The position numbers and the translations under genes were made by a program. Source: a virus (taxonomy: Duplodnaviria > Heunggongvirae > Uroviricota > Caudoviricetes). Taken from it: a stretch of DNA of 29,926 bases. Numbering within the stretch: the stretch's first letter is position 1; the number at the start of each line of letters is the position of its first letter. The notes under the pieces were generated by a model. It was not told the DNA's origin. It worked only from the letters and a program-made list of their open reading frames with translations, and made no database searches. The DNA lies in IMG/VR virus record IMGVR_UViG_2585427792_000002; one strand, written 5' to 3'. Positions 5,363 through 28,805 of this stretch are shown piece by piece.

Positions 5363-6262
5363 ATGACAAATACAGCAAAAATACTCAACTTCTGCAGAGG
5401 TAACTTTGCCAAACAGGAGCGTAATGTGGCAGATCTCGATGATGGTTACGCCAGACTATCAAATATGCTGCTTGAGGCTTATTCAGGCGCAGATCTGACC
5501 AAGCGACAGTTTAAAGTGCTGCTTGCCATTCTGCGTAAAACCTATGGATGGAATAAACCAATGGACAGAATCACCGATTCTCAACTTAGCGAGATTACAA
5601 AGTTACCCGTCAAACGGTGCAATGAAGCCAAGTTAGAACTCGTCAGAATGAATATTATCAAGCAGCAAGGCGGCATGTTTGGACCAAATAAAAACATCTC
5701 AGAATGGTGTATCCCTCAAAACGAGGGAAAATCCCCTAAAACGAGGGATAAAACATCCCTCAAATTGGGGGATTGCTATCCCTCAAAACAGGGGGACACA
5801 AAAGACACTATTACAAAAGAAAAAAGAAAAGATTATTCGTCCGAGAATTCTGGCGAATCCTCTGACCAGCCAGAAAACGACCTTTCTGTGGTGAAACCGG
5901 ATGCTGCAATTCAGAGCGGCAGCAAGTGGGGGACAGCAGAAGACCTGACCGCCGCAGAGTGGATGTTTGACATGGTGAAGACCATCGCGCCATCAGCCAG
6001 AAAACCGAATTTTGCAGGGTGGGCTAACGATATCCGCCTGATGCGTGAACGTGACGGACGTAACCATCGCGACATGTGTGTACTTTTCCGCTGGGCATGC
6101 CAGGACAACTTCTGGTCCGGTAACGTGCTGAGCCCGGCCAAACTCCGCGACAAGTGGACCCAGCTCGAAATCAACCGTAACAAGCAACAGGCAGGCGTGA
6201 CAGCCAGCAAACCAAAACTCGACCTGACAAACACTGACTGGATTTACGGGGTGGATTTATGA
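5363..6262 (+). CDS. O: Replication initiator O (299 aa)
   Basis: ORF-track protein MTNTAKILNF...TDWIYGVDL matches lambda O from memory and contains the ori iterons in-frame. Confidence 0.9.
   Translation: MTNTAKILNFCRGNFAKQERNVADLDDGYARLSNMLLEAYSGADLTKRQFKVLLAILRKTYGWNKPMDRITDSQLSEITKLPVKRCNEAKLELVRMNIIKQQGGMFGPNKNISEWCIPQNEGKSPKTRDKTSLKLGDCYPSKQGDTKDTITKEKRKDYSSENSGESSDQPENDLSVVKPDAAIQSGSKWGTAEDLTAAEWMFDMVKTIAPSARKPNFAGWANDIRLMRERDGRNHRDMCVLFRWACQDNFWSGNVLSPAKLRDKWTQLEINRNKQQAGVTASKPKLDLTNTDWIYGVDL
5711..5840. other. ori-lambda: four ~18-bp iterons plus adjacent AT-rich unwinding region
   Basis: ATCCCTCAAAACGAGGGA / TCCCCTAAAACGAGGGA / TCCCTCAAATTGGGGGA / TCCCTCAAAACAGGGGGA followed by an A/T-rich stretch (AAAAGACACTATTACAAAAGAAAAAAGAAAAG), inside the O gene. 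Confidence 0.85.
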
Positions 6263-6960
6263 AAAACATCGCCGCACAGATGGTTAATTTTGACCGTGAG
6301 CAGATGCGTCGGATCGCCAACAACATGCCGGAACAGTACGACGAAAAGCCGCAGGTACAACAGGTAGCGCAGATCATCAATGGTGTGTTCAGCCAGTTAC
6401 TGGCAACTTTCCCGGCGAGCCTGGCTAACCGGGACCAGAACGAACTGAACGAAATCCGCCGCCAGTGGGTGCTGGCTTTCCGGGAAAACGGGATCACCAC
6501 AATGGAACAGGTTAACGCAGGAATGCGCGTAGCCCGTCGGCAGAATCGACCATTTCTGCCATCACCCGGGCAGTTTGTTGCATGGTGCCGGGAAGAAGCA
6601 TCCGTTATCGCCGGACTGCCAAACGTCAGCGAGCTGGTTGATATGGTTTACGAGTATTGCCGGAAGCGAGGCCTGTATCCGGATGCGGAGTCTTATCCGT
6701 GGAAATCAAACGCGCACTACTGGCTGGTTACCAACCTGTATCAGAACATGCGGGCCAATGCGCTGACTGACGCGGAATTACGCCGTAAGGCCGCAGATGA
6801 GCTTGTCCATATGACTGCGAGAATTAACCATGGTGAGGCGATCCCTGAACCAGTAAAACAACTTCCTGTCATGGGCGGTAGACCTCTAAATCGTGCACAG
6901 GCTCTGGCGAAGATCGCAGAAATCAAAGCTAAGTTCGGACTGAAAGGAGCAAGTGTATGA
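6259..6960 (+). CDS. P: Replication protein P (DnaB helicase loader, 233 aa)
   Basis: ORF-track protein MKNIAAQMVNFDREQMRRIANN... matches lambda P from memory; start overlaps the O stop. Confidence 0.9.
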   Translation: MKNIAAQMVNFDREQMRRIANNMPEQYDEKPQVQQVAQIINGVFSQLLATFPASLANRDQNELNEIRRQWVLAFRENGITTMEQVNAGMRVARRQNRPFLPSPGQFVAWCREEASVIAGLPNVSELVDMVYEYCRKRGLYPDAESYPWKSNAHYWLVTNLYQNMRANALTDAELRRKAADELVHMTARINHGEAIPEPVKQLPVMGGRPLNRAQALAKIAEIKAKFGLKGASV

Positions 6961-7761: not shown

Positions 7762-7940
7762 GACGACAGCGACGAAGTATCACCGACATCATCTGCGAAA
7801 ACTGCAAATACCTTCCAACGAAACGCTCCAGAAATAAACGCAAGCCAATCCCAAAAGAATCTGACGTAAAAACCTTCAACTACACGGCTCACCTGTGGGA
7901 TATCCGGTGGCTAAGACATCGTGCGAGGAATACAAGGTGA
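7758..7940 (+). CDS. ninE: NinE-like protein (60 aa)
   Basis: ATG at 7758 overlapping the ninB stop; product [34 protein letters not shown]...; length and sequence fit lambda nin orf60 from memory. ninC and ninD appear absent. Confidence 0.65.
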
Positions 7941-8107
7941 TTGACCCAAATCGAAGTTACGAACAAGAAAGCGTCGAGCGGGCTTTAACGTGCGCTAATT
8001 GCGGTCAGAAGCTGCATGTGCTGGAAGTTCACGTGTGTGAGTACTGCTGTGCAGAGCTGATGAGCGATTCGAATAGCTCGATGCACGAGGAAGAAGATGA
8101 TGGCTAA
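7937..8107 (+). CDS. ninF: NinF-like protein (56 aa from GTG; alternative ATG at 7895 would give 70 aa)
   Basis: CxxC...CxxC motif ([20 protein letters not shown]); a GTG start at 7937 overlaps the ninE stop and gives a 56-aa product consistent with lambda orf56. Confidence 0.55.
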
Positions 8108-8711
8108 ACCAGCGCGAAGACGATGTAAAAACGATGAATGTCGGGAATGGTTTCACCCTGCATTCGCTAATCAGTGGTGGTGCTCTCCAGAGTGTGGAAC
8201 CAAGATAGCACTCGAACGACGAAGTAAAGAACGCGAAAAAGCGGAAAAAGCAGCAGAGAAGAAACGACGACGAGAGGAGCAGAAACAGAAAGATAAACTT
8301 AAGATTAGAAAACTCGCCTTAAAGCCCCGCAGTTACTGGATTAAACAAGCCCAAAAAGCCGTAAACGCCTTCATCAGAGAAAGAGACCGCGACTTACCAT
8401 GTATCTCTTGCGGAACGCTCACGTCTGCTCAGTGGGATGCCGGACATTACCGGACAACTGCTGCGGCACCTCAACTCCGATTTGATGAACGCAATATTCA
8501 CAAGCAATGCGTGGTGTGCAACCAGCACAAAAGCGGAAATCTCGTTCCGTATCGCGTCGAACTGATTAGCCGCATCGGGCAGGAAGCAGTAGACGAAATC
8601 GAATCAAACCATAACCGCCATCGCTGGACTGTCGAAGAGTGCAGGGCCATCAAGGCGGAGTATCAGCAGAAACTCAAAGACCTGCGAAACAGCAGAAGTG
8701 AGGCCGCATGA
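8097..8711 (+). CDS. ninG: NinG / Rap recombination-promoting protein (204 aa)
   Basis: ORF-track protein [28 protein letters not shown]... matches lambda NinG (orf204) from memory. Confidence 0.85.
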
Positions 8712-8754
8712 CGTTCTCAGTAAAAACCATTCCAGATCACAAGGGAGAAGGCGC

Positions 8755-9243
8755 ATGGGCATAAGAGAACTAAACCTCACCAAAGAACAGCACGAGTGGC
8801 TGAATGGCTGGCTTGAACTGTGGGGCGCATGGGTTTATTCAGGTCGTCTGGAAAAGCGCATGAGCAGCGTAATAGCTAAGTTCATGGAGAGCGTAGAGCC
8901 GGGAAGAGTTATGACAAGGCCAATGTGTAATGATGATGATGGAATGTTGATTTCTCAGGTCGTCGATTCCGTCATGTACATTGACAAGAAAGCCTTTGGC
9001 ATCCTCCTCAGCTACTACGCCCACGGCTCTTCCAAGCACGCCATTGCATCTTACTATCATCGCGTCGCAAGACCTCGCAAGATGTTATGCCGGGGCGGCG
9101 GGCGCATTCAAAAACCATCGCTCGCAACCTGTCGACGGGAAGTTGACGAAATCCTCAATGCCTCGTTGTTTATGATTTACCCGGTTCTGGATAGTGCGTT
9201 TAAAAACCGGAAACGTGTAGAGAAAATTAAACATGTAGCATAG
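8755..9243 (+). CDS. Q: Late-gene antiterminator Q, non-lambda type (162 aa)
   Basis: ATG at 8755 preceded by GGAGAAGG; the WGAW...RPMCNDDDGMLI motif resembles the phage 21/82-type Q family, not lambda Q; sits between the nin genes and the lysis cassette. Confidence 0.65.
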   Translation: MGIRELNLTKEQHEWLNGWLELWGAWVYSGRLEKRMSSVIAKFMESVEPGRVMTRPMCNDDDGMLISQVVDSVMYIDKKAFGILLSYYAHGSSKHAIASYYHRVARPRKMLCRGGGRIQKPSLATCRREVDEILNASLFMIYPVLDSAFKNRKRVEKIKHVA

Positions 9244-9490: not shown

Positions 9491-9608
9491 TAACTGAGCC
9501 GTAGCCACTGGATGTCCTGAATTCATCAGTGATAGTTATGCTGCGGTCTTCTTTTTCTCCCTTCCCAATATAAGAACTACGCAATCCGTTACTGGCGGAG
9601 GCGTTGCT

Positions 9609-9824
9609 ATGAAATCAATGGACAAAATCTCAACTGGCATTGCCTACGGAACATCCGCTGGTAGTGCGGGATACTGGTTTTTGCAGTGGTTGGATCAGGT
9701 CAGTCCATCACAGTGGGCTGCGATTGGGGTGCTTGGAAGCCTTGTGTTGGGCTTTCTCACCTATCTGACAAATCTGTACTTCAAAATCAGAGAAGACAGA
9801 AGAAAGGCTGCGAGAGGTGAATAA
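9609..9824 (+). CDS. S: Pinholin, phage-21 S-type (71-aa form; dual start Met1/Met4)
   Basis: Product [71 protein letters not shown] matches S21 from memory; two hydrophobic segments; GGCGGAGG Shine-Dalgarno. Confidence 0.8.
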
Positions 9825-10321: not shown

Positions 10322-10755
10322 GTAGAGTAACCGTGATTATCTCCGCTCTGGTTATCTGCATCATCGTCTGCCTGTCATGGGCTGTTAATCATTACCGTGA
10401 TAACGCCATGACCTACAAAGAACAGCGCGATAAAGCCACATCCATCATCGCTGATATGCAGAAGCGTCAACGTGATGTAGCAGAACTCGACGCAAGATAT
10501 ACAAAGGAACTTGCTGATGCTAACGCGACTATCGAAAGTCTCCGTGCTGATGTTTCTGCTGGGCGTAAGCGCCTGCAAGTCGCCGCCACCTGTGCAAAGT
10601 CAACGACCGGAGCCAGCAGCATGGGCGATGGAGAAAGCCCAAGACTTACAGCAGATGCTGAACTCAATTATTACCGTCTCCGAAGTGGAATCGACAGGAT
10701 AACCGCGCAGGTTAACTACTTGCAGGAATACATCAGGACGCAATGCCTTCGATGA
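10318..10755 (+). CDS. Rz: Rz inner-membrane spanin (145 aa)
   Basis: ATG at 10318 overlaps the endolysin stop; N-terminal TM helix then a coiled-coil-like periplasmic region; embedded Rz1 in the +1 frame. Confidence 0.7.
10511..10702 (+). CDS. Rz1: Rz1 outer-membrane lipoprotein spanin, embedded in Rz
   Basis: +1-frame ORF entirely inside Rz; signal peptide with lipobox VSAC, then a proline-rich mature region ([12 protein letters not shown]). Confidence 0.6.
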
Positions 10756-11197
10756 TAGCGATAATTTTACTCATCATCCTTCACATCTGGCTCTGTAGAC
10801 AGGGTGGTGATCACTTCTGGAGTGAATCCAGATTAAACATCTCATTGCTGATGCTTGAAGTTGAGCATCTGGCGCGCGGTAAGGGGCTGCGTTGAGATAA
10901 GAGCCAGTTCATTACAAAGCCTATCTACGGGTGGGCTTGATAATGAAACCGGAATTTATTCTGGGCAACCAGTTACGGCAGTACAGCGAAACAACCCAAG
11001 CCAGTAAGTGGGGAAATAACACTGGCAGCCACTGAAAGATGAACCTCCAGCCTTATGGCAAAAAAGATTCTTTGTGGTGGCGGACTGATGGAAAGACATC
11101 GGTTATTGCAGAGACCATTCAATGAGTGGTCTCGACAATGGCTTATATCCTGCTAAGAGTGATTAACTGGGTGGCAAAAGTTCACCACCAACATCAA

Positions 11198-11629
11198 TTA
11201 GATTAAATTATTTCGATAAGCAGAATCGATTAGAGCGTTCATAAAGAGATACTCAACATCTTCGGTATAGTCGATGTCTATTGGAGCTGTTGAGTCAAGC
11301 GCCCCAAAATGCATGCAATTGTTCCAATCAAGAAAAATTTTATGAAACTCCTGTTTTTTTCCATCTCGCGATGTGTAAAAAGTAATAACCCCAATTAATG
11401 AGCCTTCGTGAAGTGAAAGCTTACTTTCTGTAAAACACTTAAAGCGTAGCTGTGGAATTGAAACCTCAAGCTCTCCATCATTTAGCTCTATGGAAATTTG
11501 CTTATTAAGGTCTCGTTTGTTATTCCATGCGGTGTTAACACGTTCTAATAAATCATTCGTATTTTGCTGTAATAACTCACCTTTCCTAGAAAGTAACTGT
11601 GACAATCCGATAAACGTTAATGAGCTCAT
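11198..11629 (-). CDS. Hypothetical protein (143 aa), antisense moron between lysis and packaging modules
   Basis: Minus-strand ORF with ATG at 11627-11629 preceded by AAGGTGA (the track's longer GTG start at 11656 is rejected); AT-rich; opposite orientation to all flanking late genes. Confidence 0.65.
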   Translation of the reverse strand: MSSLTFIGLSQLLSRKGELLQQNTNDLLERVNTAWNNKRDLNKQISIELNDGELEVSIPQLRFKCFTESKLSLHEGSLIGVITFYTSRDGKKQEFHKIFLDWNNCMHFGALDSTAPIDIDYTEDVEYLFMNALIDSAYRNNLI

Positions 11630-11649
11630 AAATTCACCTTTGAGAAAAA

Positions 11650-12201
11650 ATGGCACTCACAGACAAGCAAGAGATGTTCTGTCGCGAGTACCTCATCGAT
11701 TTAAACGCCACGCAAGCGGCTATTCGGGCGGGGTACAGCGCAAAAACAGCCAACCGTACCGCATCCGAAAACCTGTCAAAACCTGACATCAAGTTAAGAA
11801 TCGCCGAACTGAAAGCGCAACGCAATGATCTTGTTGGTATTAATGCAGAATATGTACTTAATCGCCTTATTGAAATCGACCAGATGGATGTGCTTGACAT
11901 TCTCCTGCAAAACGGTGAGCTAAAACCCATTAAAGACTGGCCTAAGGTATGGCGCACAACGTTATCAGGAATGGATGTCGTGGAGATGGCATCCGCAGAT
12001 AGCGCCGCACTTCTGAAGAAAATCAAATGGCCTGATAAGGTTAAAAACCTTGAGTTGCTCGGGCGTCATGTTTCTGTTCAGGCGTTTAAAGACAATGTCA
12101 AAAATGAAGTGACTGGTGCTGACGGAGGACCAGTCAGAACAGAAATTACCAACTTAACGCCGGAGCAGGTTGCAGAAGCGTATAGAAAAATGATGGGCTA
12201 A
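11650..12201 (+). CDS. Terminase small subunit (non-lambda type)
   Basis: 183-aa ORF immediately upstream of and nearly abutting the large terminase; N-terminal region ([30 protein letters not shown]) resembles small-terminase DNA-binding domains; not lambda Nu1. Confidence 0.65.
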
Positions 12202-25829: not shown

Positions 25830-26897
25830 ATGACACAGAACTGGATGAGACATTTCGAGCTGCAGCTTGTGGACGGGAACGGTCAGGGAATTGAGCTAAG
25901 TGATTTCAAAGTCACCTTTACGATCGACTGGTTCAACATCAGCAGCGCGTCCCGGGTAGGGACTATCAAAATTTATAACCTCTCGGCAGATACTGTGAAC
26001 CGAATTACCGGGCAGGAGTTTTCGAAAGTGCGTCTGATTGCGGGTTACGACGGTATCGCGCCGGAGGTGTCGGCAAGCGATGTCGGGACCGTGCGGGAGG
26101 TTGATGCGGCGGACGTGGGCCAGAGTGATGGCCGCAACTACGGACTGATTTTCAGCGGTGAAATTCGCTACTCGGTCACAGGAAAAGACAGCCCGGTTGA
26201 TTCCTACGTCCTGATTCAGGCAGCCGATACAGATCTGGCTTTTGCCACCAGTATAACCTCACAGACGCTGGCTGCCGGTTACACGGTCGCTGATGTGAAC
26301 CGTGCGCTGATGAAAGACTTCGAAGCCAAAGGTGCGACCGAAGGCCTGACGCCTGAAATGCCTGCTACTGTATTCCCCCGGGGGCGGGTACTCTTTGGCA
26401 TGACGCGGCATCTTATGGATAATGTAGCCGGGCAATGTGGCGCAACATGGCAATTCGTGGATGGTCAACGCCAGATGGTGGCGAATAATGAATATGTTCA
26501 CGAAGCGATTGTGCTCAACAGCGCTACCGGGCTTATTGGCATGCCGCAGCAGACTATCGGTAACGGCGTAAACGTCCGCGCGCTTATTAATCCGAACATC
26601 CGGGTTAACGGGCTCATTCAACTGGATCAGGCTTCAGTGTATCGTACCGCGTTGTCGAACAACGATATCGCGATGGCCGGTGGGCAGATCACCGACCAGA
26701 ACACGGACGGAAATATTACGCTAAGCGGCACCACATCGCAGCCTGCCAGCATCGCAACGGATGGCGTTTATATTGTGCGTGGGATTATGTACACTGGCGA
26801 CACAAGGGGGCAGGCGTGGTACATGGATATGATGTGTGAAGCACGTGGCGCGGCTGATCTACTTTCGTCCTCAGCGCAGCAAAGGATTTATTCATGA
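25830..26897 (+). CDS. Tail/baseplate protein (355 aa), family undetermined
   Basis: ORF-track ORF co-linear with tail genes; last phage-like structural gene before the AT-rich cargo. Confidence 0.5.
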   Translation: MTQNWMRHFELQLVDGNGQGIELSDFKVTFTIDWFNISSASRVGTIKIYNLSADTVNRITGQEFSKVRLIAGYDGIAPEVSASDVGTVREVDAADVGQSDGRNYGLIFSGEIRYSVTGKDSPVDSYVLIQAADTDLAFATSITSQTLAAGYTVADVNRALMKDFEAKGATEGLTPEMPATVFPRGRVLFGMTRHLMDNVAGQCGATWQFVDGQRQMVANNEYVHEAIVLNSATGLIGMPQQTIGNGVNVRALINPNIRVNGLIQLDQASVYRTALSNNDIAMAGGQITDQNTDGNITLSGTTSQPASIATDGVYIVRGIMYTGDTRGQAWYMDMMCEARGAADLLSSSAQQRIYS

Positions 26898-27241
26898 AGC
26901 GTATGAAGTTAGTTTTGACAATTTCGTTATTATTTTCTTGTTCAGCAGCTTTTGCTGATTTGCAATGCGGCGGATATCTACTTCATGCAGCTGATAACGG
27001 TTGGACAAAAATCAACGGTGAGCAGGTAACATCACAGAAGATTACGTTTCTTGGTAAGAAAGATGACTGGGACAACGTTAAAACTAACATGGGCCTGATG
27101 CCTTCTCGCGATGGCAACAATTACGGCTTTGAGTTTGTGAAGCGTAACGGAAAAGCTTTCCTGAACGTCCAGCTTCTGCAGAACAGCATGGATGCGCCTA
27201 AAATCATCGGATCATTCCCTTGTAAAAAGGCGTTACGCTAA
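26894..27241 (+). CDS. Small secreted/periplasmic protein with Sec signal peptide (115 aa)
   Basis: N-terminus MKRMKLVLTISLLFSCSAAFA-DLQ has a basic n-region, hydrophobic core and AxA-like cleavage site; the mature part (about 94 aa) has two Cys; AT-rich codon usage unlike the tail genes. Confidence 0.65.
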   Translation: MKRMKLVLTISLLFSCSAAFADLQCGGYLLHAADNGWTKINGEQVTSQKITFLGKKDDWDNVKTNMGLMPSRDGNNYGFEFVKRNGKAFLNVQLLQNSMDAPKIIGSFPCKKALR

Positions 27242-27336
27242 AGTTTGATGTCAATCTTCCGAGATGAGCGCTTTAAGGTTGACGAGATATTGTTCAAAGT
27301 TCACAATCACAATCCCTTTAGTAAGAGAAATAATCC

Positions 27337-28110
27337 ATGGCGGCAGGCATCCCATTAGAAAAAGCGCAAAAATATATTGAACAATTCAATGCGCTTCTAT
27401 TGGATAGGGAAAGTTTAGATCCCTTCACTGAAAAGAAAATTCGAGAGGAACTTTCTGTCTCTCCAACGCCTGCTACCAACATTGCACTATCTTATCTGGA
27501 TGCAATAACCGGAAAGATTGAAAGCGCGTTACGTTATCTCAGGATAAGCCTAGAAGTAAACGATGTAACGTTGGCAATGCACTATCATCACATTTTAATT
27601 AATACATTTAGCTATAATGAACTCAAGGATGTCTATGTCCCGCTGGCAAAGAAGTATCGGACAAAACTCTTTAGTCACAACGCATACAGTTGGGCGTACC
27701 GTTGCGGCGAGCGTGAACAGTTAAAATTTTATATGGAAGAGCACATTAAGCTTCTTTCTGAATCAGAAGGCAGGAGTAATGCTATGAAGCACAAAGAAGA
27801 ACTCCTTGCAGAAATGGATAATTTCTATAGCGCCACACAGTGCTCGAAGGAACAGTTCCAGACCTTAGCATCCATAATCTGGGGCTTGCTAAGTGAATAC
27901 AAGGCTACGACAGGTTTCGTTCAGCTTAGTGGAAGCGGTTGCTATGTTGTTGATATTAAAAATCTTGAGCCTAAAACTATTGCCAAAATGAACTTCGACT
28001 TGGCTGATAGAGTCTGCGCTGAATCTAAACTGGATGATTGTTCCCTGTTAGCTAGATTTACCTCTCCGCGTCAGTTGCATACGGGGGTGAGCTACCATGT
28101 CGGTAACTAG
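27337..28110 (+). CDS. Hypothetical protein (257 aa), first gene of AT-rich two-gene cargo module
   Basis: ORF-track ORF; AT-rich; predicted largely helical by composition; overlaps the downstream ORF by 14 nt (co-translated pair). Confidence 0.6.
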   Translation: MAAGIPLEKAQKYIEQFNALLLDRESLDPFTEKKIREELSVSPTPATNIALSYLDAITGKIESALRYLRISLEVNDVTLAMHYHHILINTFSYNELKDVYVPLAKKYRTKLFSHNAYSWAYRCGEREQLKFYMEEHIKLLSESEGRSNAMKHKEELLAEMDNFYSATQCSKEQFQTLASIIWGLLSEYKATTGFVQLSGSGCYVVDIKNLEPKTIAKMNFDLADRVCAESKLDDCSLLARFTSPRQLHTGVSYHVGN

Positions 28111-28378
28111 CAATCAGATTCTCGATACCGCTCGATTATGTCTGTCTGAAAATATTGAGAGTGGATTTCGAAGCGCTATCTCAAGGGCGTATTACAGTAT
28201 GTTACATGAGTCTATTAGCTCACTTACTGCCATACCGCATTTTACCCATGAGCATCACAAAAATACTGTGGGTTATATGTCAACGCCCTCAGAGTGCAAA
28301 TCAGAGCCATACCCGACAAATACACTGAAATCCCTAGCTTTCGTACTTCGCCAGTGGCGGGATGCTAGAAATGAATAG
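28097..28378 (+). CDS. Hypothetical protein, C-terminally truncated by the IS2 insertion (93 aa as read)
   Basis: The stop codon TAG (28376-28378) is formed by the first three bases of the IS2 left inverted repeat (TAGACTGG...), so the native 3' end is probably displaced beyond the IS. Confidence 0.5.
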   Translation: MSVTSNQILDTARLCLSENIESGFRSAISRAYYSMLHESISSLTAIPHFTHEHHKNTVGYMSTPSECKSEPYPTNTLKSLAFVLRQWRDARNE

Positions 28379-28805
28379 ACTGGCCCCCTGAATCTCCAGA
28401 CAACCAATATCACTTAAATAAGTGATAGTCTTAATACTAGTTTTTAGACTAGTCATTGGAGAACAGATGATTGATGTCTTAGTAGACTGGCCCCCTGAAT
28501 CTCCAGACAACCAATATCACTTAAATAAGTGATAGTCTTAATACTAGTTTTTAGACTAGTCATTGGAGAACAGATGATTGATGTCTTAGTAGACTGGCCC
28601 CCTGAATCTCCAGACAACCAATATCACTTAAATAAGTGATAGTCTTAATACTAGTTTTTAGACTAGTCATTGGAGAACAGATGATTGATGTCTTAGGGGC
28701 CGGAGAAACGCAGAAGCTCCAGACAACCAATATCACTTAAATAAGTGATAGTCTTAATACTAGTTTTTAGACTAGTCATTGGAGAACAGATGATTGATGT
28801 CTTAG
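28376..28805 (+). repeat. Tandem array: about four copies of a 107-bp unit derived from the IS2 left end
   Basis: Copies start at 28376, 28483, 28590 (exact 107-bp period, identical) and 28697 (109 bp, leading 18 nt replaced by GGGCCGGAGAAACGCAGAAG). Each carries the 89-bp core CTCCAGACAACC...ATGATTGATGTCTTAG including the orfA start codon. Confidence 0.85.

Follow-up and report, generated by a model that had tools for sequence, protein, structure and literature searches.

A core hub-linked gene of SEN34/Brunovirus-like prophages encodes a predicted exported beta-barrel protein with a swappable N-terminal cassette and a possible role in phage exclusion

The T4 protein Spackle (Sp, the product of gene 61.3) is a small phage protein that is exported by the Sec pathway to the periplasm. 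Lom and Bor of lambda and Cor of phi80 and N15 are envelope-targeted accessory proteins encoded at a fixed place beside the tail-tip genes of temperate phages; each is transcribed from a promoter of its own and is produced in lysogens. Ltp of phage TP-J34 and related exclusion lipoproteins are exported or anchored phage proteins whose polymorphism changes the set of excluded phages and which are thought to act on the tape-measure protein (PMC3952083). A gene that can be compared with these systems was studied in a 29,926-nucleotide stretch of tailed-phage DNA (IMG/VR record IMGVR_UViG_2585427792_000002), the whole of which is referred to below as the window. The gene, called sec here, lies at positions 26894-27241, immediately after the baseplate hub gene, and encodes a 115-aa protein with a predicted signal peptide.

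Like Spackle, the sec product is small, and it is predicted to be exported by Sec and to reside in the periplasm; by the logic proposed below, it would also meet the incoming tail tip there. It resembles Ltp in its predicted export, and some of its relatives are lipoproteins. However, Ltp belongs to a phage of a Gram-positive host, its gene lies in the lysogeny module, its fold is different and it has no homology to the sec product. The fixed place beside tail-tip genes is shared with lom, bor and cor, but those genes have promoters of their own, and their products are outer-membrane proteins or lipoproteins of other families with no detected homology to sec. The sec product belongs to none of the Spackle, Ltp, Lom or Cor families, and family, PDB and PADLOC searches gave no match between it and a characterized protein of superinfection exclusion (Sp, Imm, Ltp, Llp, Cor, SieA or HK97 gp15).

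The gene, its parts and the adjoining hub gene were as follows.

25830-26897, plus strand: baseplate hub gene, 355 aa (PHROG 196 'baseplate hub', E = 1.9e-88); its last codons hold the ribosome-binding site of sec and lie in the variable cassette.
26870-27090, plus strand: hypervariable cassette, covering the final codons of the hub gene, the signal peptide and about 45 residues from the start of the mature sec product (DNA identity to the related prophage loci L002 and L017).
26882-26886, plus strand: Shine-Dalgarno sequence AAGGA, 7 nt 5' of the sec ATG (direct reading of the sequence).
26894-27241, plus strand: sec, the exported-protein gene, 115 aa (PHROG 3443 match and homologue survey).
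26894-26956, plus strand: predicted signal peptide of the Sec/signal peptidase I type, residues 1-21, with cleavage after AFA and before D (readable n-, h- and c-regions; kept in 151 of 154 homologues).
26957-27238, plus strand: mature domain, 94 aa, an eight-stranded antiparallel beta-barrel as modelled by AlphaFold2, with C25 and C110 as invariant columns.

At the level of sequence, sec was confirmed as a real gene and not a chance reading frame, because its product matched PHROG 3443 (E = 1.1e-53, residues 1-112 of the 115-position profile), homologues were found in 404 clusters at 90% identity, an identical protein was encoded on 783 contigs, and the signal peptide and the cysteines were conserved. 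All named clusters came from Enterobacterales, and the family was carried by 319 of 5426 complete Escherichia coli genomes (about 6%). A profile search of the whole library gave only 67 clusters at 50% identity, and the family therefore appears to be narrow. It is already catalogued, with no assigned function, as PHROG 3443 and under a PGAP name: the sec product is 70% identical to WP_000824896.1, which PGAP calls 'STY1065/STY2022 family phage-derived protein', and the NCBIfam copy that was searched contained no hidden Markov model (HMM) named STY1065/STY2022. The ATG of sec (26894-26896) overlaps the TGA of the hub gene as ATGA (26894-26897). The GC content of sec was 42.5%, that of the hub gene 54% and that of the tape-measure gene 53%; the drop from the level of the tail genes (~54%) began at sec, and the low level persisted to 28750. 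The initial annotation of this locus had described an AT-rich 115-aa reading frame with a Sec-type signal peptide and two cysteines in the mature part, the start of which overlaps the stop of the 355-aa gene, and all of this was borne out.

The position of sec was surveyed in 42 loci from contigs chosen as one genome per species and in 80 viral contigs, which represent a more distant subfamily, with tail genes placed by tblastn. In essentially all of these 122 loci, which span the SEN34/Brunovirus-like prophages of Enterobacterales, sec was located directly 3' of the hub gene, and the hub gene was present in 79 of the 80 viral contigs that carried sec. In about 105 of 109 loci, no more than ~20 nt separated the inferred start of sec from the stop of the hub gene. 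This synteny persisted down to 36% identity for sec and 46% for the hub. The spike gene began 0 to 4.1 kb after sec, and the gap was shorter than 80 nt in twelve loci. It may be concluded that sec is an accessory gene that has become a core feature of a whole lineage, the temperate SEN34/Brunovirus-like myoviruses, in which the early regions are lambdoid.

These results changed part of the earlier interpretation, in which sec was a moron inserted after the tail and baseplate genes, perhaps with its own promoter, that might act in exclusion, receptor masking or virulence. The exported, hub-coupled gene remained; the insertion and the promoter did not. The gene lies between hub and spike, and the later tail genes were removed from the window by an IS2-like cut; its position after the hub is fixed. 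No promoter-like or terminator-like sites adjoining sec were found, that is, neither a sigma-70-like promoter nor a terminator of its own, and a promoter search in the window and in the paralogue arrays described below gave nothing above chance. The best promoter-like match nearby (26395-26423, equal to 9596-9624 of locus L001; TTGGCA, 17 nt, GATAAT; 10 of 12 positions) lies inside the hub gene, ~470 nt 5' of sec, and the number of such sites equaled the chance expectation. The suggestion that sec is expressed with the late genes was supported as the default expectation, because its translation is coupled to that of the hub gene.

The sec product begins with MKRMKLVLTISLLFSCSAAFA, followed by DLQCGG, with the predicted cleavage between the two. 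The n-region (MKRMK), the h-region (LVLTISLLF) and the c-region (SCSAAFA) are readable. Among 154 full-length homologues, 151 had a (-3,-1) cleavage site of small residues behind a hydrophobic core and 1-7 residues before the invariant cysteine; the mean best 9-mer hydropathy of these cores was 2.8. Exactly two mature cysteines were present in 147 of the 151. The call was based on the n/h/c and (-3,-1) rules and on the conservation of these features while the signal-peptide sequence itself varied freely. From this, the product is predicted to be exported to the periplasm via Sec and cleaved by signal peptidase I. In the window protein, C25 and C110 are the only mature cysteines, and the third cysteine, C16, lies within the signal peptide. 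The possibility that C16 marks a lipoprotein (LFSC lipobox) was considered and rejected, given that C16 is not conserved and a lipobox-like motif occurred in only 19 of the 151 homologues. Separately, larger relatives of the lipoprotein type exist: in L072 and L076 (about 5420-6300) and in P0135 and P0156, the sec domain ends a 265-292-aa lipoprotein with a clear lipobox and an N-terminal domain of ~190 aa.

An AlphaFold2 model built from a 43-sequence alignment (pLDDT 85.6) showed the signal peptide as an N-terminal helix of lower confidence, followed by strands at residues 23-25, 28-32, 38-40, 47-52, 62-68, 76-84, 87-95 and 104-112. Foldseek searches with this model returned nothing significant from the PDB or from BFVD, and sequence and profile searches of the PDB were empty. 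As modelled, the barrel is without a close structural relative. PHROG and fold searches also revealed no homology to tail, baseplate or assembly proteins, in agreement with the earlier remark that the protein is unlike any tail component.

The main new result was the polymorphism of sec. When the window was compared with L002, DNA identity was 45-68% between ~26850 and 27090; in the hub gene and in the DNA that follows 27090 it was 93-100%. Comparison with L017 gave the same pattern. Only 19 of the 319 E. coli genomes with the family matched the window allele over its full length, and the rest matched from nt 118 or from nt 185-196. Across loci, the GC content of the variable N-terminal half was 43%, like that of the cargo genes downstream, and that of the constant C-terminal half was 50%, like that of the hub. 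The N-terminal types were discrete, recurred across genera and, as judged by eye, were always paired with the matching C-terminal tail of the hub. The type found in the window, with the hub tail SAQQ(R/K)(I/V)YS, occurred in E. coli, Enterobacter, Yersinia and Photorhabdus, in which the hubs were 59-63% identical to that of the window. Since the hub tail also encodes the ribosome-binding site of sec, its co-inheritance with the sec type may be passive. The signal peptide and the N-terminal mature half form a swappable, horizontally exchanged cassette, and the C-terminal half is a nearly constant scaffold.

In two prophage lineages, sec was multiplied. Six paralogues were arranged in tandem between hub and spike in Serratia aquatilis (L028, 5458-10346), with an IS256-like transposase inside the array; the C-terminal halves of these copies were almost identical, and the differences were located in the signal peptide and the first strands. 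Four paralogues were found in Pseudescherichia vulneris (L039, 629-2849; also L118 and L120), where the copies were divergent over their whole length, one of them was truncated, and duplicated fragments of the hub 3' end lay between them. Two related prophages that reside together in Pantoea stewartii had a common C-terminal half and different N-terminal halves. The cassette polymorphism and the tandem arrays are new results of this analysis. They recall the orphan-immunity and cassette arrays of polymorphic toxin systems (CDI, Rhs and the type VI secretion system), in which a variable module also lies between constant recombination anchors and is stacked in tandem; the retention of duplicated 3'-end fragments of the upstream gene in the L039 array is another shared feature. 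Unlike in those systems, no toxin domain was evident, and only about 12 hub codons varied; the likeness is architectural only.

Because an exported barrel, a fixed position, discrete exchangeable types and paralogue arrays fit this best, it was considered that the sec product recognizes a variable partner in the envelope, and the tail tip of related phages was chosen as that partner because this is the most economical assumption. The following mechanism is proposed. The protein would be made from the end of the hub operon, exported by Sec, cut after AFA and folded in the periplasm as a disulfide-stapled eight-stranded beta-barrel. There it would wait and bind, in a type-specific manner, a tail-tip component of incoming related phages, and this binding would stop penetration or DNA entry. 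Candidate targets are the spike, the hub or the tape-measure protein; the last is annotated as a lytic transglycosylase and is a plausible periplasmic target. Tandem paralogues would widen the range of excluded phages. In this way, sec would provide a type-specific periplasmic block of penetration or DNA entry by related phages, that is, superinfection exclusion or protection from lysis from without, on the model of T4 Spackle and TP-J34 Ltp. We infer both the periplasmic target and the exclusion function, and we hold this reading tentatively, as the likeliest of those considered but at less than even chances.

Several observations weigh against it. The most serious one concerns expression in the lysogen, where exclusion matters most: the search for a separate sec promoter was negative, so this expression is unproven, and in a lambdoid genome the gene would otherwise be reached only by Q-dependent late transcription. 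The protein resembles none of the known exclusion proteins in sequence or fold, and literature searches found no experiment on the family and no paper that mentions or addresses it. Discrete old types under purifying selection also fit other specificities. The strongest covariation of sec was that with residues 1-60 of the spike (rho 0.55-0.64; partial 0.41-0.50 when the hub was controlled for, with pairs that were not independent), but this is confounded because variable cargo lies between the two genes, and linkage through exchange of cargo together with its flanks explains it more simply, with no functional link. Covariation with the C-terminus of the tape-measure protein was weak. The correlation with the hub-tail segment was low, a figure that is unreliable given the poor alignment of this segment.

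A broader version of the exclusion proposal is rather doubtful. It holds that the last part of the hub gene acts together with the N-terminal half of sec as a type-determining cassette locus, a phage system of self/non-self recognition or exclusion groups organized like toxin-immunity orphan arrays, in which types are kept across genera by balancing selection and arrays broaden exclusion. If true, competing temperate myoviruses that are related to one another would divide their hosts by a mechanism that has not been described before. Prophages of the SEN34 type are common in Enterobacterales, among them E. coli, Salmonella, Klebsiella, Yersinia and Photorhabdus. As a conserved and sharply polymorphic exported protein of the baseplate operon, the sec product is a good candidate for the factor that determines whether a related phage can enter lysogens or infected cells. 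If the exclusion role is correct, it would bear on competition between prophages and on host range in phage therapy of Klebsiella and Salmonella, and the family would be a new one of entry-blocking proteins.

Among other explanations, it is rather unlikely that sec encodes a periplasmic inhibitor of peptidoglycan hydrolases similar to PliC, MliC or PhiA, in which a conserved loop at one barrel end would plug an active site. The enzyme blocked would come either from the phage itself (the tape-measure transglycosylase or the endolysin) or from outside it (a host or animal lysozyme), and the effect would be on lysis timing or lysogen protection. This lead was taken up because one family member carries the UniRef name 'C-type lysozyme inhibitor domain-containing protein' and because the two mature cysteines, as in MliC, lie close to opposite ends of the chain. 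Furthermore, the phage encodes a GH24 lysozyme and a transglycosylase-type tape-measure protein, and the close subfamily conserves the loops NGExVTSQK, MPxRDGNNYGF and MDAPK between strands 3-4, 5-6 and 7-8, at what the topology suggests is the same end of the barrel. For comparison, the E. coli MliC sequence was confirmed against 2F09, its homologues were collected into a 53-sequence MliC/PliC profile, and mature domains were compared by hhalign. Membership of sec in this family (PF09864) was rejected: the hhalign probability was only 0.1-0.2% against a profile that was itself shallow (Neff 2.1), and neither sec nor its relatives (43 members) matched the Pfam MliC model at E <= 10. The diagnostic loop motifs, SxSGxxY and then an xWxKG region, can be recognized in MliC and in the sequences from Pseudomonas and Brucella but are absent from sec; its PSRDGNNYGFEFVKRNGK resembles the MliC loop motif loosely, and this candidate loop is not conserved in the distant subfamily. 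The sec product may share a fold class with the MliC/PliC inhibitors (PF09864 and relatives, PhiA included), with which it has no profile similarity, but not a family; the likeness is non-specific and no better than that to unrelated small barrels. In addition, an inhibitor of a conserved active site needs neither a hypervariable half nor paralogue arrays.

It is unlikely that sec is a ligand-binding or host-interaction factor of lysogenic conversion, whose calycin-like barrel would bind a small molecule or a surface component of the host or a competitor and would have nothing to do with phage entry. The nearest fold neighbors, none of them significant, included lipocalin-like and avidin-type binders (Tp0751, avidins and prostaglandin D synthase), and Lom and Bor of lambda are exported proteins encoded beside tail genes that have host-interaction roles. 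A role in conflict or exclusion was considered more plausible than one in virulence because of the cassette-like polymorphism and the tandem arrays.

A baseplate assembly factor or minor structural protein, with the hydrophobic N-terminus serving as a membrane anchor or not used for export, is very unlikely. The synteny of sec with the hub is as strict as that among baseplate genes, translation of the two is coupled, and sec covaries with the hub and with the spike N-terminus. However, a cleavable signal peptide with a conserved (-3,-1) site has been kept despite free sequence variation, the invariant cysteine pair suits the oxidizing periplasm, lipoprotein versions exist, and similarity to tail proteins is lacking. 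Moreover, cassette swapping beside a 98%-identical hub and stacks of 4-6 copies would not be tolerated by a structural partner.

That sec is a recently inserted, self-expressed moron is highly improbable: its AT-richness and the cargo-like GC content of its N-terminal half point that way, but its position is unchanged in virtually every relative, even where identity is as low as 36%, it has no promoter, terminator or intergenic spacer, and its C-terminal half has the GC content of the hub.

The features downstream of sec in the window were as follows.

27279-27334, plus strand: two promoter-like sites before the first cargo gene (consensus matches only, no commoner than chance).
27337-28110, plus strand: cargo gene 1, 257 aa, PHROG 17809, in the variable slot between sec and spike.
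28097-28378, plus strand: cargo gene 2, PHROG 5176, cut at codon 93 of 131 by the IS2-like insertion (HEPN-like motifs by eye only).
28376-28805, plus strand: left end of the IS2-like element, with four tandem copies of its first 107 bp followed by transposase open reading frames (ORFs) (comparison with L001 and L128).

Because the position of sec is fixed and the genes between sec and spike are very variable, this slot is the true moron hotspot, and the moron anatomy (promoter-like sites, genes and a terminator hairpin) belongs to the downstream neighbors of sec. Cargo in about 100 loci (L003-L127) fell into about 145 unrelated ORF clusters, and its GC content was below that of the hub in 91 of 91 loci. 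The types recognized by eye were Doc/Fic-like, Phd/YefM-like, HEPN-like, T5orf172-like and antirepressor-like proteins, as well as other proteins with signal peptides. In L001, the second cargo gene is intact (131 aa), and the pair (10480-11730) is preceded by promoter-like sites and followed by a strong hairpin-T4 terminator. Neither the 257-aa nor the 131-aa gene had a match in Pfam or PADLOC; the pair is a candidate toxin-antitoxin or defence unit. The slot between sec and spike is a rich and easily located source of candidate cargo of these kinds.

The window represents a lambdoid prophage whose head and contractile tail belong to the SEN34/Brunovirus type; it carries the genes CII, O/P, Nin and Q as well as genes for a holin, a GH24 lysozyme and Rz. 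Since these last three are already present, a spanin or lysis role for sec was rejected. Upstream of the hub gene are genes for the tape-measure protein (a lytic transglycosylase according to PGAP), a Dit-like protein and a plug protein. In addition to its PHROG match, the hub scored 22.8 bits against Pfam E217_GP41, which is under the cut-off, and 162.5 against NCBIfam orf58_phage_fam, for which the cut-off is 170.

Intact relatives of this prophage are located at tRNA-Thr beside proA. The gene order in the intact relatives L001, L002 and L128 was hub, sec, 257-aa gene, 131-aa gene, terminator hairpin, spike, sheath initiator, baseplate J, wedge and fibres. Homology of the window to these relatives ended at 28375. 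The IS2-like element, which cuts the prophage at 28376, stands in place of the terminator, the spike gene and everything after it in the tail module, and this cut is the only reason why those genes are absent from the window. Therefore, sec sits within the baseplate module, in the hub-spike interval of a truncated prophage. The 107-bp repeat of the IS2-like element (28376-28805), which extends from the left end to the start of the first ORF, was present in four copies at 96% match exactly at the prophage cut, and it reflects either a rearrangement or an assembly artefact. The prophage of L001 (strain PK8276) is itself internally deleted: at 7770-9028, early-region genes (DUF1382 and DUF1317) adjoin the plug gene, the head genes and most tail genes are gone, and the segment from hub to fibres is retained.
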